In this document: piece by piece, positions 18,850-23,935 of the stretch
How positions within the stretch are numbered: the stretch's first letter is position 1
Layout of the letters: each line of letters begins with the position of its first letter
The notes under the pieces: model-generated
Seen by the model: the letters and a program-made list of their open reading frames with translations, nothing else
Told to the model about the DNA's origin: nothing
Databases searched by the model: none
Assembly (NCBI RefSeq): GCF_003334815.1
Contig: NZ_QOWO01000016.1
Reading direction: 5' to 3' (one strand)
Length of the DNA: 64,000 nucleotides
From: Escherichia coli
GTDB lineage: Bacteria; Pseudomonadota; Gammaproteobacteria; Enterobacterales; Enterobacteriaceae
Translations under genes and position numbers: made by a program

Positions 18850-19104
18850 ATGGGTAAGATTATTCGGTGGATGCTTTTTTTTGTCGGATTATTTTCCGTT
18901 GCATATTCAATATATAAATATCAACAATCTCCGCAGAGTTTATTTTACATAATCGGTGCTATAGGAACACTTTTATCTGCTACATGTGGTTTACTTGAGA
19001 TAAAAAGCAAGAAATCGAATGGCAGTATAACTGCTGGCGACAACTCAAATATCGTTGTCATTAATGGTTCAGAAAACACATCAAAAATAAAAAATAGAGG
19101 GTGA
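18850..19104 (+). CDS. small two-helix membrane protein (84 aa), unknown family - cassette 1 gene A
   Basis: ATG with AGAGG RBS ~7 nt upstream; two hydrophobic helices (res ~5-22, ~31-50) then polar tail containing GDNSNIVVINGSENT; hand-counted GC ~30-35%. Confidence 0.6.
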   Translation: MGKIIRWMLFFVGLFSVAYSIYKYQQSPQSLFYIIGAIGTLLSATCGLLEIKSKKSNGSITAGDNSNIVVINGSENTSKIKNRG

Positions 19105-19106
19105 TT

Positions 19107-20042
19107 ATGTTTGATAAAGAGGTTAACTTAGGAGACAACTCAAACGTAGTAAAAACAGAAGGGAATAACAACACAACAATAATAAATAATTTTGATGAGA
19201 AGTTTATAGGTCACGTTGTAAGATCCATGCTTTATGAAAGTATGCCTTCCTTTCAAGAAGAAGCTAGAAAAAAGATAATTGCGTCAACTGATGAATACAT
19301 TAGAGAGCTAATATCTGAGTTAGTAATTCAAAAAACAGATGCAGATACATTAAACCAAAAACTATCAACGCCTGACGTTCAATACTCTCTTTTTGAATCA
19401 GCTAAATGTTTTGCAAAAAATCCAGAAAGAACAGCAAAATCAACTCTGTTAAATTTAGTTGTAAAAAAAATAAATGAATTGGATGGAGATCATGAAGAGC
19501 TTTCCTCTATCGATCTGGCAATAAACGTCGCTACAAAACTTAGCGTAAAGCAAATAAGGTATATATCTTTAATATACTATATTAAAGATATTGTAAAAAT
19601 ATCACAAGATAGTGCCGGCGCTTATTGCATAATAGATCCTTCAAAAGATACAACAGAAGAAGTTGACGATTTCTTTTTATTCCCAAATGATATAAAAAGG
19701 AACAAGCAGGATGTTTATGATCTTTATATCGATCTATATAACAATCAAATGGATGTTGTATTTAAAGATGAAGAGATTGGCCCAGTTGATTATAGTATGC
19801 TTATAGCATTGGGTTGTATCATTCAACCTGCATTCCCTCAGCGAACATTTGTACAAAATGTAAAGAAAAGAACAGGATTAGATTTAAACGACAGCGAACA
19901 AAAATTAAAGCTATCGACATTCATTGAGAAAATAGAAAAAGCTATAGAGATAGATTCTGTCGATTATATAGTATTAACTACGGTTGGTAGACAAATAGCT
20001 AACGCCTATATATCAACAAGAATGAGATTAGTTAACTTATAA
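19107..20042 (+). CDS. 312-aa soluble protein of unknown family - cassette 1 gene B
   Basis: ATG at 19107 with AGAGGG 6 nt upstream, 2 nt after gene A stop (ORF track start 19101 is an upstream GTG); N-terminus contains GDNSNVVKTEGNNNT; hand-counted GC ~27%; followed by hairpin terminator. Confidence 0.65.
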   Translation: MFDKEVNLGDNSNVVKTEGNNNTTIINNFDEKFIGHVVRSMLYESMPSFQEEARKKIIASTDEYIRELISELVIQKTDADTLNQKLSTPDVQYSLFESAKCFAKNPERTAKSTLLNLVVKKINELDGDHEELSSIDLAINVATKLSVKQIRYISLIYYIKDIVKISQDSAGAYCIIDPSKDTTEEVDDFFLFPNDIKRNKQDVYDLYIDLYNNQMDVVFKDEEIGPVDYSMLIALGCIIQPAFPQRTFVQNVKKRTGLDLNDSEQKLKLSTFIEKIEKAIEIDSVDYIVLTTVGRQIANAYISTRMRLVNL

Positions 20043-20063: not shown

Positions 20064-20099
20064 AAGGTGGTGGCTTCATCATCCACCGCCTTCTTTTCT
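20064..20099 (+). terminator. rho-independent terminator of cassette 1
   Basis: AAGGTGGTGG-CTTCATCAT-CCACCGCCTT hairpin followed by CTTTTCT. Confidence 0.55.
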
Positions 20100-20103
20100 G
20101 CTC

Positions 20104-20240
20104 TTAAGAGTAGTGAACAAACCACTCGTCAGCAAACTCCCAAGTATCTTTCAGAGTCTCCTGAACAAAAGCCTTAGCAGAATCCTTATCTGCGGTGTAC
20201 GTAACAGGAAAATCATCGCTATGGTAGCTTTGACGCTCAC
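20104..20240 (-). pseudogene. truncated dinI-like remnant (3' portion only)
   Basis: nucleotide similarity to the 3' end of the intact dinI-like gene at 21881..22129 (GTGAACAAACCACTCGTCAGCA.ACTCCCA.GTATCTTTCAGAG...); no N-terminal part or start codon. Confidence 0.6.
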
Positions 20241-20366
20241 CCCCATACCATAAAATATCAAGAGATTACGACTCATTTCCCCATGACTCTTCACCAACCA
20301 ACAGTTCTATCAACATAAGATGTAAACTCATAAACTAAGCAAGATAAAAAAATTAACAGAATTTTG

Positions 20367-20395
20367 TTGATTTCATGTCTGTGGAGTGTTAACTT
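20367..20395 (+). promoter_or_regulatory. candidate sigma70 promoter for the XRE/ImmA operon
   Basis: TTGATT-17 nt-TAACTT about 50 nt upstream of the XRE start. Confidence 0.3.
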
Positions 20396-20445
20396 AAAAT
20401 GAGACCTGAAGTACTGAAGGTCTTTGACACACTGGAGAAGCAACT

Positions 20446-20805
20446 ATGTTAACGCCGTTTGGTAAGACAGTAAGAAAAATGCGCATAGACTTGGGGCTTA
20501 CGCTTAAAAGCATGGCTGAGGCTATGGGCATGACCTCGTCTTATCTTTCAGCGATCGAAACTGGTAAAAGGGCGGTCACTAAGCCCGTGCTTGATAGCAT
20601 CATTAGCTATTTTAATGCGGATGAAAAACAAAAAGAAAAGCTTATCAGTGCAGCTCGTGACTCTCAGCAGTCAGTAGAGATCAGCTTGTCAGGTAAGAAT
20701 GGCCACGCTCGTGAAGTCGCAATTGCGTTCGCTCGTAGTTTTGATGAATTAAATGAAGAAGACTTCCGTAATTTACGACAGATTTTGAATCGAAAACAGC
20801 AGTAG
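20446..20805 (+). CDS. XRE-family helix-turn-helix transcriptional regulator
   Basis: 119 aa; N-terminal HTH region (LGLTLKSMAEAMGMTSSYLSAIETGKR) typical of XRE/Cro-C1 repressors. Confidence 0.8.
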   Translation: MLTPFGKTVRKMRIDLGLTLKSMAEAMGMTSSYLSAIETGKRAVTKPVLDSIISYFNADEKQKEKLISAARDSQQSVEISLSGKNGHAREVAIAFARSFDELNEEDFRNLRQILNRKQQ

Positions 20806-20813
20806 GAGGCGGC

Positions 20814-21335
20814 TTGAGCGGACAAGATTATCGTGTACCTCCGCAGAATCGTGAATCAATACGTTCTATCGTCACATCTCTGCGGAGCGCATTTGGTATT
20901 ACTGGGCTTAAATTCCCTGTAATGGAGGTAATTGAGTTCGCATTGCCTCAGTTGATCCCGGATTTTGAGTTCCACATTGGTGGCATGAAAGAAATGGGAG
21001 AAACGCATGGTCTTACGTACCCACAGGAACATTTATTGATTCTGCGCGAAGACATTTACGAAGGCGCTTTGAATGGGGTAGGGCGAGATAGGATGACTGC
21101 CGCGCATGAATTGGGTCATCTTCTTATGCACAGGAACATCGCATTTGCTCGTTCTGCCCCAGGGGTAAAAATCCGCCCTTTTGAGAGTAGTGAATGGCAA
21201 GCTAAATGTTTTAGTGGTGAGTTATTAGTGCCGGCTATGCATGTCAGTATTTTAAAAGGTATGACGGCTGAGGATGTTGCTAAGGCATGCGGAGTTTCAT
21301 TAGTGGCAGCGCGTTATCAGCTAGACAGAATGTAA
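20814..21335 (+). CDS. ImmA/IrrE-family zinc metallopeptidase
   Basis: 173 aa; TTG start 4 nt after TAGGAGG; HEXXH motif (AAHELGHLLMH); immediately downstream of XRE gene, the classic HTH-peptidase pair. Confidence 0.8.
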   Translation: MSGQDYRVPPQNRESIRSIVTSLRSAFGITGLKFPVMEVIEFALPQLIPDFEFHIGGMKEMGETHGLTYPQEHLLILREDIYEGALNGVGRDRMTAAHELGHLLMHRNIAFARSAPGVKIRPFESSEWQAKCFSGELLVPAMHVSILKGMTAEDVAKACGVSLVAARYQLDRM

Positions 21336-21338
21336 AAA

Positions 21339-21373
21339 CCCCTTGCTTGGCGCCAACCAGTGCAAGGGGCTTT
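21339..21373 (+). terminator. stem-loop after ImmA-like gene (putative terminator)
   Basis: CCCCTTGC ... GCAAGGGG inverted repeat with large loop, then CTTT. Confidence 0.4.
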
Positions 21374-21488
21374 AGGTGATGAATCCAAGAGGCATCACCA
21401 CCGTGAACAGCTTCGATAGACAGCCTGAAATTAACACCTTCAGGGAAGATGTTCAAGGGAAAAATCTCTCTTGGTAAGGAGGTGTTTT

Positions 21489-21593
21489 ATGAATGGGTTT
21501 GAAATCAATTGCTTCAAAAGCGGCGCCCAAAGGGTTCCGTTGGGTTTTCTGCCGTTACCGCAAGGTGCGTGGGAAATCAAAAAAAGTCCTTGA
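21489..21593 (+). CDS. small ORF (34 aa) with strong ribosome-binding site, unknown function
   Basis: AAGGAGG 6 nt upstream of ATG; translation MNGFEINCFKSGAQRVPLGFLPLPQGAWEIKKSP; terminator 60 nt downstream; not in ORF track (under 60 aa). Confidence 0.35.
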   Translation: MNGFEINCFKSGAQRVPLGFLPLPQGAWEIKKSP

Positions 21594-21654
21594 TGCTCAT
21601 GATTACGGGTACGAGGCGTGGGCATTTTTAGTGCGCTGCTAAGGGTTAGTATTT

Positions 21655-21680
21655 AAGGCACCTGCGGGTGCCTTTTTTGT
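21655..21680 (+). terminator. rho-independent terminator
   Basis: GGCACC-TGCG-GGTGCC hairpin followed by TTTTTT. Confidence 0.65.
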
Positions 21681-21774
21681 ATCCTCTGACCCGATTGGTG
21701 TCTTGCTGAGCCTGATAACTACCAATTTTTGTTATTACTATTCTACTATCGCTCAATCATGATTGGCGGGAGTT

Positions 21775-21877
21775 GAAACCGCAGGCACGTCGTATGCAAG
21801 AACGTGCTGCGGCTGGCTGGTGAACTTCCGATAGTGCGAGTATTGAATGATTTCCAGCCGTTACAGATTTTACGTGC
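21775..21877 (+). repeat. direct repeat copy 2 (~100 bp) at right edge of cargo region
   Basis: near-identical to 18489..18590. Confidence 0.7.
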
Positions 21878-21880
21878 TAA

Positions 21881-22129
21881 TTAGTGAACAAACCACTCGT
21901 CAGCAGACTCCCAGGTATCTTTCAGAGTTTCCTGAACAAAAGTTTTAGCTGAATCTTTATCGGCGGTGCGCGTAACAGAAAGGCCATCGTTGCTGGTGGC
22001 TTTTACGATCACCTCTACATCGTCATAACGCTTACTGATGCGTCGAGTTAATTCTTCCTTTAACGCATCCACAGCACCGTTTGGCATTTTAGTCATTTTC
22101 TCTTTAGCTATGCAGATCTCAATACGCAT
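21881..22129 (-). CDS. DinI-family protein (prophage-encoded)
   Basis: 82 aa [11 protein letters not shown]...[11 protein letters not shown], resembles DinI; two LexA boxes in its upstream region. Confidence 0.85.
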
Positions 22130-22213: not shown

Positions 22214-22329
22214 TGTACAAATGTTCTTTGGCTACAAATACACCTACTGATCATGTTCTGCTATGCTCTGATACCTCCAAAATGTACAATCAGCGGCATG
22301 AATTTTTCTTTGTACATATGATTGTACAT
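22214..22329. repeat. cluster of four TGTACA motifs incl. two TTCTTTG-N0-2-TACA(A/T) direct repeats upstream of prfC
   Basis: TGTACA at 22214, 22283, 22311, 22324. Confidence 0.4.
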
Positions 22330-22348
22330 AATTAAAGAGACAACAATT

Positions 22349-23935
22349 ATGACAAGCCTTTTGGCCGCAGAGGTAGCGAAAAGAAGAACCTTTGCAATTA
22401 TTTCTCACCCGGACGCCGGTAAAACTACCATCACCGAGAAGGTGCTGCTGTTCGGACAGGCCATTCAGACCGCCGGTACAGTAAAAGGCCGTGGCTCTAA
22501 CCAGCACGCTAAGTCGGACTGGATGGAGATGGAAAAGCAGCGTGGGATCTCCATTACCACGTCTGTGATGCAGTTTCCGTATCACGACTGCCTGGTTAAC
22601 CTGCTCGACACCCCGGGGCACGAAGACTTCTCGGAAGATACCTATCGTACCCTGACGGCGGTGGACTGCTGCCTGATGGTTATCGACGCTGCAAAAGGTG
22701 TTGAAGATCGTACCCGCAAGCTGATGGAAGTTACCCGTCTGCGCGACACGCCGATCCTCACCTTTATGAACAAACTTGACCGTGATATCCGCGACCCGAT
22801 GGAGCTGCTCGATGAAGTTGAGAACGAGCTGAAAATCGGCTGTGCACCGATCACCTGGCCGATTGGCTGCGGCAAGCTGTTTAAAGGCGTTTACCACCTT
22901 TATAAAGATGAAACCTATCTCTATCAGAGCGGTAAAGGCCACACCATTCAGGAAGTCCGCATTGTTAAAGGGCTGAATAACCCGGATCTCGACGCTGCGG
23001 TTGGTGAAGATCTGGCGCAGCAGCTGCGTGATGAACTGGAGCTGGTGAAAGGCGCGTCTAACGAGTTCGACAAAGAATTGTTCCTTGCGGGCGAAATCAC
23101 TCCGGTATTCTTCGGTACTGCGCTGGGTAACTTCGGCGTTGATCATATGCTGGATGGCCTGGTGGAGTGGGCACCTGCGCCGATGCCGCGTCAGACTGAT
23201 ACCCGTACTGTAGAAGCGAGCGAAGACAAATTTACCGGCTTCGTATTTAAAATTCAGGCCAACATGGACCCGAAACACCGTGACCGCGTGGCGTTTATGC
23301 GCGTGGTATCCGGTAAATATGAAAAAGGCATGAAGCTGCGCCAGGTGCGCACTGCGAAAGATGTGGTGATCTCCGACGCGCTGACCTTTATGGCGGGCGA
23401 CCGTTCGCACGTTGAAGAAGCGTATCCGGGCGATATCCTCGGCCTGCATAACCACGGCACTATTCAGATCGGCGACACCTTTACCCAGGGTGAGATGATG
23501 AAGTTCACTGGTATTCCGAACTTCGCGCCGGAACTGTTCCGTCGTATCCGCCTGAAAGATCCGCTGAAGCAAAAACAGCTGCTCAAAGGGCTGGTACAGC
23601 TTTCCGAAGAGGGCGCGGTGCAGGTGTTCCGTCCGATCTCCAACAACGACCTGATCGTTGGTGCAGTTGGTGTGCTGCAGTTTGATGTGGTGGTATCGCG
23701 CCTGAAGAGCGAATACAACGTTGAAGCAGTGTATGAGTCAGTCAACGTTGCCACTGCCCGCTGGGTAGAATGTGCGGACGCGAAGAAATTCGAAGAGTTC
23801 AAGCGTAAGAACGAAAGCCAACTGGCGCTTGATGGCGGCGATAACCTCGCTTACATCGCTACCAGCATGGTAAACCTGCGCCTGGCGCAGGAACGTTATC
23901 CGGACGTTCAGTTCCACCAGACCCGCGAGCATTAA
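22349..23935 (+). CDS. prfC: peptide chain release factor 3
   Basis: 528 aa from ATG 22349 ([27 protein letters not shown]...); GTPase motifs; ORF track start 22322 is an upstream in-frame ATG. Confidence 0.95.

Follow-up and report, generated by a model that had tools for sequence, protein, structure and literature searches.

A Shine-Dalgarno (SD) sequence, AAGGAGG, lies at 21476-21482 of a 64,000-nucleotide stretch of the Escherichia coli chromosome (contig NZ_QOWO01000016.1, hereafter the window) beside prfC (22322-23935) and osmY, and 6 nt downstream of it an ATG opens a 34-codon open reading frame (ORF). A preliminary description of this DNA took that frame for a small protein of prophage cargo, set between an upstream stem-loop and a strong downstream terminator, and allowed that the SD might instead belong to an RNA structural element. 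The question raised by the locus is which frame, if any, is translated from this SD, and what the structured DNA ahead of it does. The substitution pattern shows that the true gene is an overlapping 49-codon frame (21493-21642) under purifying selection, and covariation supports folding of the ~150 nt upstream of it into a leader with a pseudoknot, which a predicted antisense RNA would contest. The gene and its leader are widespread and absent from Rfam, Pfam, NCBIfam and PADLOC, and we put at roughly 0.6 the probability that they form an antisense- and pseudoknot-controlled module.

The gene behind the Shine-Dalgarno sequence

The following features define the gene and the frame that competes with it.

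21476-21482, + strand: SD AAGGAGG, read from the sequence and invariant in the leader alignments
21489-21593, + strand: the 34-codon ORF of the preliminary description, in a different register from the conserved gene, with its AUG optimally spaced from the SD
21493-21642, + strand: the real coding sequence, for a 49-aa basic protein (MGLKSIASKAAPKGFRWVFCRYRKVRGKSKKVLDAHDYGYEAWAFLVRC), identified by purifying selection, homologues, phrog_33859, PGAP annotation and an AlphaFold (AF2) model
21655-21680, + strand: intrinsic terminator of the small gene, a stem of 8 pairs (21655-21674) followed by TTTTTT

From the SD, the sequence runs through a 6-nt spacer (TGTTTT) to the ATG at 21489-21491, the body of the 34-codon frame (MNGFEINCFKSGAQRVPLGFLPLPQGAWEIKKSP) and a TGA at 21591-21593; in the ORF list the same frame is given from an upstream TTG (21471-21593). 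The features given in the preliminary description are all present, including a terminator some 60 nt downstream, which in our scan starts 62 nt past the 34-codon stop and 12 nt past the end of the 49-codon ORF. Equivalent elements, a hairpin followed by a U-run, stand 3' of the small gene at other loci. The 49-codon ORF starts at a second ATG (21493), 10 nt past the SD and four bases past the first ATG, and overlaps the 34-codon frame.

The two frames are clearly separated by how they change. A ~360-bp stretch containing them was found in 13 of 5426 complete E. coli genomes, as two variants ~90% identical to each other. Between the window variant and the other, the 49-aa frame carries 13 synonymous and 2 non-synonymous codon changes, whereas all 8 changed codons of the 34-aa frame are non-synonymous. 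Pairwise comparison of 23 distinct ungapped 147-nt homologues gave the same picture, with synonymous changes making up 71% of the codon differences in the 49-aa (+1) frame versus 8% in the 34-aa frame, and with the variable sites distributed 21/14/46 over codon positions 1/2/3 of the 49-aa frame. In relatives, the length of the 34-codon ORF falls anywhere from 4 to 34 codons, and PHROG and family-profile searches with its peptide returned no family match or homologue. As a conserved protein, the 34-aa ORF is effectively refuted by these comparisons, which satisfy the condition that the preliminary description had itself set for giving it up, a reading frame not conserved in related sequences. 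That it is the functional small protein (toxin, anti-defence factor or regulator) is very unlikely, even though its AUG has the textbook spacing from AAGGAGG. What stood of the earlier proposal is an overlooked small gene of prophage cargo with a strong SD and a terminator of its own; the frame assigned to it did not. A near-perfect SD-AUG pair, then, can indicate the wrong frame.

The arrangement of SD and start codons is nonetheless beyond chance, as judged from its retention: GGAGGTG is followed 4-6 nt on by ATG in 39 of 39 distinct leaders of the GGAGGTG type, and in all 39 this first AUG is out of frame, so ribosomes may initiate there. The conserved ORF begins 2, 4 or 7 nt beyond it depending on the lineage, often with GUG, its start codon standing 8-13 nt past the SD. 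One possible role for the out-of-frame AUG is that of a decoy or competing start that damps output; alternatively, a GUUCA:UGAAU helix (88% paired, 3 pairs with changes on both sides) may hold it in place. A programmed frameshift from the first AUG into the conserved frame was considered and rejected, the offset varying among lineages (+2, +4, +7) and the first ORF being as short as 4 codons.

The suggestion that the SD belongs to an RNA structure was right in part. It lies between paired segments of a highly structured (z = -3.4), pseudoknotted leader, and one could imagine that the region is merely a non-coding RNA whose SD and AUG are structural and never translated. This we regard as extremely unlikely in view of the codon-position periodicity and synonymous fraction of the 49-aa frame, of a protein that stays 50-98% identical across phyla while the DNA diverges, and of a confident AF2 model.

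The 49-aa protein matches phrog_33859 (function not assigned) at E = 1.5e-26, its residues 1-49 aligning with profile positions 1-55 of 57, and has 28 word-indexed homologues with E down to 6e-26. Clustering at 50% identity left 101 representatives of the family, nearly all of 41-60 aa. The exact protein occurs on hundreds of Escherichia contigs, over 1000 contigs of Klebsiella carry close relatives, which also occur in Citrobacter, Yersinia and Moraxella, and the family reaches 80 species-representative genomes from Gamma-, Beta- and Alphaproteobacteria, Nitrospirae, Planctomycetota, Synergistota and Brachyspira. Its core motif, G[FY]RWVFxRYRxV(R/K)..S.KVLDAxDYGYxAWxFLV, is nearly invariant. 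With 12 Lys/Arg against 3 Asp/Glu (net charge about +9) and no hydrophobic stretch, the protein is probably nucleic-acid-binding, to judge from its charge; the AF2 model (predicted local distance difference test 88.6) shows a small antiparallel beta sheet and one helical turn. No Pfam, NCBIfam or PADLOC model matched, defence and toxin models included, and we disregarded a DUF2880 match at E = 8e-3 for three family members. A PDB sequence profile search found no match, an AFDB search only uncharacterised members of the protein's own family, and a literature search on its accession and sequence motifs nothing.

Small genes of this kind escape standard ORF tracks, and annotation is inconsistent even on identical DNA: PGAP calls the ORF in strain IPCEC31 (WP_023277296.1; locus L001, 4154-4303) and leaves it uncalled in strain 510016 (locus L002). 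Source databases name the protein "hypothetical protein" or, occasionally, "Transposase". Several disrupted copies were also noted. In E. coli WP5-S17-ESBL-11 (L006, 4200-4913) an IS1 is inserted at about codon 22 of the small gene, sequence P0028 is a frameshift chimera joining the 34-aa and 49-aa frames, and in P0058 a deletion joins the N-terminus of ImmA to the small protein; the IS1-interrupted and frameshifted copies prove nothing on toxicity.

The leader, its pseudoknot and a predicted antisense RNA

The stems of distant loci differ in sequence yet stay complementary. In the window, the proposed fold consists of these elements.

21339-21369, - strand: hairpin HP1, 12 pairs, loop CGCCAA; UUUUU follows at 21338->21334 and the + strand has no U-tract; 9 of 9 inner pairs change on both sides
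21375-21399, + strand: hairpin HP2, stem GGUGAUG/CAUCACC, loop AAUCCAAGAGG with an SD-like GAGG (RNAalifold)
21385-21392, + strand: 5' strand of pseudoknot PK1, CCAAGAGG, within the HP2 loop, complementary to 21467-21474
21401-21458, + strand: helix P3, pairing 21401-21414 with 21445-21458; 83% paired, 11 of 11 pairs change on both sides
21424-21444, + strand: hairpin P4 inside P3, loop AUUAACACC; 74% paired, 5 of 6 pairs
21464-21469, + strand: anti-SD AUCUCU, able to pair with GGAGGU at 21478-21483 into an OFF hairpin (RNAalifold); 94% of cells paired
21467-21474, + strand: 3' strand of PK1, UCUCUUGG, overlapping the anti-SD and ending 1 nt before AAGGAGG and 3 nt before the GGAGG core

When 19 leaders were aligned with MAFFT, blind to structure, the proposed fold (HP1, HP2, P3/P4 and the pseudoknot) was 80% paired, against 35-50% when the partners were slid by one to three columns, and 29 of its 43 pairs changed on both sides, a figure that 0 of 500 shuffles reached. 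We then used a covariance model built from 19 enterobacterial leaders, with the pseudoknot left out. It matched distant leaders outside the seed over their full length (Pseudomonas, Stenotrophomonas, Acinetobacter and others), always ending at the start of the small ORF. In the model-based alignment 85.9% of cells were paired, 41 of 44 pairs changed on both sides, and the covariation score was 0.444 versus 0.147 in shuffled and at most 0.115 in slid controls. HP2 stands out with 96.7% of its cells paired and changes on both sides at 7 of 7 pairs. G.U pairs number 16 in it and A.C mismatches 2, and this excess of G.U indicates that HP2 is selected as a + strand hairpin. Support for P3 and P4 is weaker than for HP2 and PK1, in a region that appears to double as the antisense promoter described below.

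The pseudoknot joins the HP2 loop to the flank of the SD. On 56 distinct sequences (alignment A7), 84.5% of PK1 cells were paired and 7 of 8 pairs changed on both sides; 53 cells were changed on both sides against 18.6 +/- 5.5 in shuffled alignments (0 of 500 reaching the observed value), and the covariation was 0.341 versus at most 0.126 in slid controls. Since the pseudoknot was absent from the covariance model, the alignment had not been fitted to this pairing. An alignment-free duplex test agreed: the SD-flank strand binds the upstream region of its own locus better than those of other loci (p = 6e-9), while wrong-region controls were non-significant. Examples of the covarying partners, given as HP2 loop and SD flank, are these.

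CUGGGAG with CUCUCAG
CCGGGAGGA with UCCUCCCGG
CCCAAGG with CCUUGGG
UGGAGCC with GGCUCCA
AACAGCGG with CCGCUGUU
GUAACCGA with UCGGUUAC

Throughout these changes the HP2 loop always keeps an SD-like GAGG or GGAG and the partner strand an anti-SD-like CUCU or CUCC. For this reason we read the pseudoknot as an SD mimic that would draw the anti-SD off the real SD, the PK1 partner strand overlapping the same AUCUCU that RNAalifold pairs with GGAGGU. Rfam gave no match to the leader on either strand, whether for the window (E <= 1) or for ten distant loci (E <= 0.1); weak matches to STnc130 and CssrB elsewhere are terminator-like hairpins. A second pseudoknot, between the P4 loop AACACC and a GGUGUU immediately past the SD (in Pseudomonas, between UAGUCA and UGACUA), looked attractive by eye and stays tentative: its own-versus-other-locus test gave p = 0.02 only, and conservation of the loop is explained by the antisense -10.

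The most conserved leader nucleotides left "unpaired" by the fold, GUUCAAG and the P4 loop UAACAC, spell on the minus strand TTGAAC, a 17-nt spacer with a TGn and TAATTT, that is, a promoter with an extended -10. Two further features are predicted from it.

21428-21456, - strand: sigma-70 promoter, -35 TTGAAC at 21456->21451, 17-nt spacer ending in TGT, -10 TAATTT at 21433->21428, start at ~21421
21421->21334, - strand: cis-antisense small RNA (sRNA) of ~87 nt, made up of a 5' tail, then a stem-loop (loop CCUCUUGGAUU) that is the complement of HP2, then a terminator hairpin with U-run

We scored 83 distinct leaders with a simple sigma-70 position weight matrix. Mean best scores were 10.8 (minus strand), 5.2 (plus strand) and 5.9 (shuffled sequence; p ~ 4e-15). 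A minus-strand -10 of the form TAnnnT was present in 79 of the 83, and in 65 of the 83 it stood at 46-53 nt from the SD (commonest -50). The hexamers themselves diverge fully (TAGAAT in Stenotrophomonas, TACAAT in Acinetobacter, TATAAT in Brachyspira, TAACAT in Pseudomonas). About 80 nt past the promoter, the minus strand carries the HP1 hairpin and a T-run in 68 of 85 distinct leaders, and the predicted RNA has a median length of 86 nt across loci. An independent tool scan recovered the same promoter-terminator pair at two loci (L116 and L110), the promoter at the same place with 10 of 12 matches. Upstream of the SD there are thus two hairpins, HP1 and HP2, where the preliminary description had one stem-loop. 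HP1 is not a terminator of the + strand, where it is preceded by AAAAA and has no U-tract; it resembled a terminator without a U-tract because it would terminate the opposite strand.

The antisense RNA, inferred from these promoter and terminator motifs, would be fully complementary to HP2. In the window it folds into two hairpins (-39.5 kcal/mol), and its loop CCUCUUGGAUU carries CUCUUGG, the same as the pseudoknot strand, so that it would compete with the pseudoknot for the HP2 loop. The leader might instead be a purely cis-acting sensor (a riboswitch, thermosensor or protein-binding leader) with no antisense RNA made, the minus-strand motifs being by-products of + strand structure and of the upstream gene's terminator. 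Both promoter elements do overlap the fold, the -35 within the 3' strand of P3 and the -10 within the loop of P4, and constraint on the RNA could be what retains them; HP1 could serve the upstream gene, and the window's -10 is weak. We nevertheless consider this improbable: TTG-N(16-18)-TAnnnT keeps a near-constant position relative to the SD though the sequences fully differ, the U-run of HP1 lies on the minus and not on the plus strand, and the plus strand gives no promoter signal.

Other roles for HP1 were tried and dropped. Most copies have no U-tract that would make it a + strand terminator of the protease gene upstream. A sigma-54 site within it (TGGCGC-N-TGCA) has a spacing off by one and, by eye, is not conserved; its loop does not fit the RYYYAAC/GTTRRRY of integron attC sites; and a kissing interaction of its GGCGCC with a GGCGCC of the ORF shows no co-variation between E. 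coli variants. Separately, the HP1 loop octamer GCGCCAAC (window 21349-21358) is conserved across distant taxa (loci L054, L073, L080, L097, L154 and L084) and in several lineages appears as its reverse complement GTTGGCGC, which is unexpected in a terminator loop.

The XRE/ImmA cassette and the proposed switch

Upstream of the leader lie two genes that recur with it.

20446-20805, + strand: XRE-family helix-turn-helix (HTH) repressor gene, 119 aa, first of the cassette (PGAP 'helix-turn-helix domain-containing protein'; PADLOC capH, E = 3.6e-10; HTH_VI, E = 5e-12)
20814-21335, + strand: ImmA/IrrE (COG2856, peptidase M78) metalloprotease gene, 173 aa, with HELGH as its HEXXH (PGAP 'ImmA/IrrE family metallo-endopeptidase'; PADLOC capP, E = 4.9e-11)

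The protease translation contains AHELGH, its counterparts in L015, L017 and L020 carry PF06114, and its stop codon lies 157 nt before the start codon of the 49-aa gene. The same order (HTH, protease, a gap of ~140-210 nt, small ORF, terminator) recurs between wholly different flanking genes, also in prophages and islands from metagenomes, and many prophages carry the cassette between their integrase gene and the junction with host DNA. Of 80 viral-contig loci, roughly three quarters have XRE/ImmA directly 5' of the small ORF, as do 37 of 80 species-representative genomes; apart from this pair, no neighbour is conserved across loci. At loci without XRE/ImmA, a different gene of the same orientation precedes the small ORF, about as far away. 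It encodes a phrog_2602 protein at 17 loci and a member of a ~260-aa family at 7; other products include a class II RNR-like protein, UmuC (Neisseria), a RadC-like JAB protein, a Cas3-like helicase (Halomonas, Onishia) and a TIR protein. The small ORF was seen together with its leader behind RNR-like, UmuC, Cas3-like or RadC-like genes (L146, L148, L149 and L153; L169-L170; L172 and L177; L126 and L156). A sense promoter for the small gene was neither conserved at -290..-95 nor found by a tool scan, and because none is conserved ahead of the leader, the gene appears to ride on the transcript of the upstream gene.

Taken together, these features probably form a self-contained control module around the 49-aa gene, in which a stress-gated small basic effector is restrained by an antisense RNA and activated by a pseudoknot. 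The operon would be silenced by the XRE repressor until DNA damage or infection activates the ImmA-type protease; the repressor would be cleaved and the transcript would read into the leader, a step that, like the resulting de-repression, is inferred from the protein family. By default, the anti-SD AUCUCU would sequester the SD. The SD-mimicking HP2 loop would capture the anti-SD stretch in the pseudoknot, freeing the SD for synthesis of the 49-aa protein, and the constitutive antisense RNA would sit on that loop and block activation until the mRNA exceeds it. The out-of-frame AUG at its optimal spacing may divert ribosomes and damp output further.

The weakest step of this model concerns the product, whose most plausible role is that of a dose-sensitive effector that inhibits growth or acts against phage. 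Repression in several layers and neighbourhoods rich in defence genes make a toxin or abortive-infection output plausible. A broader and distinctly tentative proposal is that the module is undescribed and widespread, that the soluble, strongly basic 49-aa protein is a type I toxin of a new, non-membrane kind or an effector of abortive infection, freed when the XRE/ImmA switch fires and the mRNA outruns the antisense RNA that blocks the SD-mimic pseudoknot, and that this RNA-gated mini-gene travels as a rider on stress, repair and defence genes (UmuC, RNR, RadC, Cas3-like, TIR).

The main rival account makes the 49-aa protein a third regulatory component rather than the payload, either a modulator of XRE/ImmA or an RNA/DNA-binding autoregulator acting through its own leader, and leaves the variable cargo as the real outputs. 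The genes 5' of the HTH gene are often divergent and defence-like (RT+SLATT, a GIY-YIG nuclease, T5orf172, AHH + Imm11), an arrangement described for CapH/CapP (10.1101/2022.04.27.489752); a basic, beta-rich protein is compatible with nucleic-acid binding; and the small protein has diverged much less than its partners (for instance 96% identity where ImmA has 66%, and 65-70% where ImmA has 35-45%). We think this account unlikely, if worth keeping in view, as only HTH/ImmA are conserved among the neighbours, the small gene also stands behind unrelated genes with no XRE/ImmA at all, and gating by antisense RNA and pseudoknot is typical of dose-sensitive products.

Several further points weigh against the module as we have drawn it. 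The greater conservation of the small protein would suit equally well a regulator whose target is universal among hosts, and the protein lacks the hydrophobicity of classic type I toxins and matched no model of a defence system or toxin. In about half of the genome loci, the small ORF stands behind genes other than XRE/ImmA, so the link to the stress switch is frequent but not obligatory. On the RNA side, the anti-SD helix is nearly invariant on both sides and hence beyond covariation testing, and the antisense -10 of the window, TAATTT (3 of 6 matches, with the TG extension), falls under the tool's promoter threshold. In P4, A.C mismatches outnumber G.U ones and the antisense -10 accounts for the conservation of the loop, which makes the inner leader fold less certain. 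Both RNAs and the protein are predictions from sequence.

Some observations concern the surroundings of the cassette. The region 20340-20445 upstream of the HTH gene holds an inverted repeat, TTAACAGAATTTTGTTGA, over a promoter-like site TTGATT-17-(TGT)TAACTT, with similar repeats before the HTH gene in L015 and L020; it is likely the operator of the XRE repressor. DinI-like genes flank the cassette at 20067-20177 and 21881-22129 (both - strand), one of them intact and the other a truncated second copy, which suggests that the cassette was inserted or recombined into the dinI locus of a lambdoid prophage remnant next to prfC. The ~100-bp block at 21772-21880 is 91-96% identical to many lambdoid and Stx phages (e.g. 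HK97 20941-21041), where it is unannotated; it holds a strong hairpin, CCGCAGGCACG...CGTGCTGCGG (~21779-21812), with a weak match to the CssrB 3' end, and could be a conserved phage terminator or sRNA. On the 5' side, two overlapping + strand ORFs (18850-19104, 84 aa, membrane-like; 19101-20042, 313 aa) have no PADLOC match. In sister strains their slot holds RT+SLATT split by an IS1 (L002) or a LEM-3-like GIY-YIG nuclease (L001, L006), and the position looks like a variable cargo or defence slot. In two prophages, C4 antisense RNA, a1/b1 targets and isrK (P1/P7-type immunity RNAs) lie near the cassette, ~4.2 kb off in L015 (1413-1646, + strand) and ~1.3 kb off in L054 (1498-1698, - strand).

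Comparison with known systems

The protein pair resembles ImmR/ImmA (ICEBs1, phi105), DdrO/IrrE (Deinococcus) and the CBASS regulators CapH/CapP, in which a COG2856/M78 HEXXH metalloprotease cleaves an XRE-type HTH repressor on DNA damage (10.1101/2022.04.27.489752; PMC13228613; PMC10904395). Xre-COG2856 was proposed in 2009 as part of three-component toxin systems (PMC2701414). The window has the same order of an XRE HTH protein and a COG2856/M78 HEXXH protein, with the capH/capP matches and the ImmA/IrrE annotation, and at 173 aa its protease is of ImmA size; CapP and IrrE have an extra C-terminal domain. Unlike CapH/CapP, it has no CBASS system or element-excision genes attached, and its neighbours vary. 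The conserved downstream partner here is a small ORF with RNA control elements, which go unmentioned in the literature cited on those systems.

In hok/mok/sok, a small-protein mRNA has an overlapping second frame at its initiation region, an inactive folded form and a short antisense RNA; mok starts upstream, hok translation is coupled to it, and Hok is a membrane toxin. Our locus shares the overlapping frame at the start, the folded mRNA and a predicted antisense RNA, but its out-of-frame AUG shares the SD with the real start and opens an ORF whose length is not conserved. In symE/symR, tisB/istR-1 and dinQ/agrB, a small-protein gene is kept off by a damage-responsive repressor, by mRNA structure and by an sRNA that is antisense to it or overlaps it; the 5' region of the toxin gene in symER contains the sRNA promoter, and SymE is not a membrane peptide. 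The likeness of these SOS-controlled type I systems to our locus is this three-level repression of a small-protein gene. The sensor here would be XRE/ImmA and not LexA, and the predicted antisense RNA targets an upstream activator hairpin and not the ribosome-binding site (RBS). For tisB, a pseudoknot and a standby site are described (PMC7708055).

Set against the usual marks of a type I toxin-antitoxin system, the locus has, as a prediction, an RNA antitoxin with its own promoter (79/83 leaders) and terminator (68/85) that would pair with the toxin mRNA. Its protein is not a hydrophobic membrane peptide of <60 aa, having 12 Lys/Arg to 3 Asp/Glu and no hydrophobic stretch. SymE and RalR are exceptions to the hydrophobic type I toxins.

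The control logic comes closest to two further systems. The toxin mRNA of timPR (RyfA/TimP-TimR) exists in an RBS-sequestered form and in an active form that needs a 5'-UTR (untranslated region) pseudoknot, which the antitoxin sRNA destabilises (PMC11228461, PMC13000454). This is the pseudoknot-versus-antisense logic that we propose here. TimP, however, is a small inner-membrane toxin, whereas the 49-aa protein is basic and looks soluble; timPR is a stand-alone locus, whereas our module has no promoter of its own and rides on the upstream operon; and the sequences are unrelated.

For repZ of IncI1 (ColIb-P9) and IncB plasmids, the relevant passage of PMC8053102 (citing Asano and Mizobuchi 1998, PMC1170848) states that an antisense RNA prevents a pseudoknot essential for translation. 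There, as at our locus, the loop of a far-upstream hairpin pairs beside the SD and a short constitutive cis-antisense RNA contests the same loop; here the pairing covaries and the antisense RNA is predicted. The differences are that the product is a 49-aa prophage cargo protein and not a replication initiator, that sequence similarity and Rfam matches are absent, and that there is no coupling of the repY/repB kind, in which a leader peptide terminates at the start codon. What stands ahead of the true start is an out-of-frame AUG, and the sole overlapping ORF begins after the SD; leader-peptide coupling and Rep control are thus missing. The HP2 loop is complementary to the SD-adjacent sequence (CCAAGAGG with UCUCUUGG), and the predicted antisense RNA, 21421->21334, would span HP2 and so target the same loop. 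If our reading is correct, a new protein family and two RNA elements without an Rfam counterpart (the leader and the antisense RNA) would join the antisense-controlled small proteins, and a large clade of orphan XRE/ImmA pairs whose targets lack assignment would gain a concrete output. The "pseudoknot versus antisense" logic of the IncI plasmids and timPR would then recur in prophage cargo.

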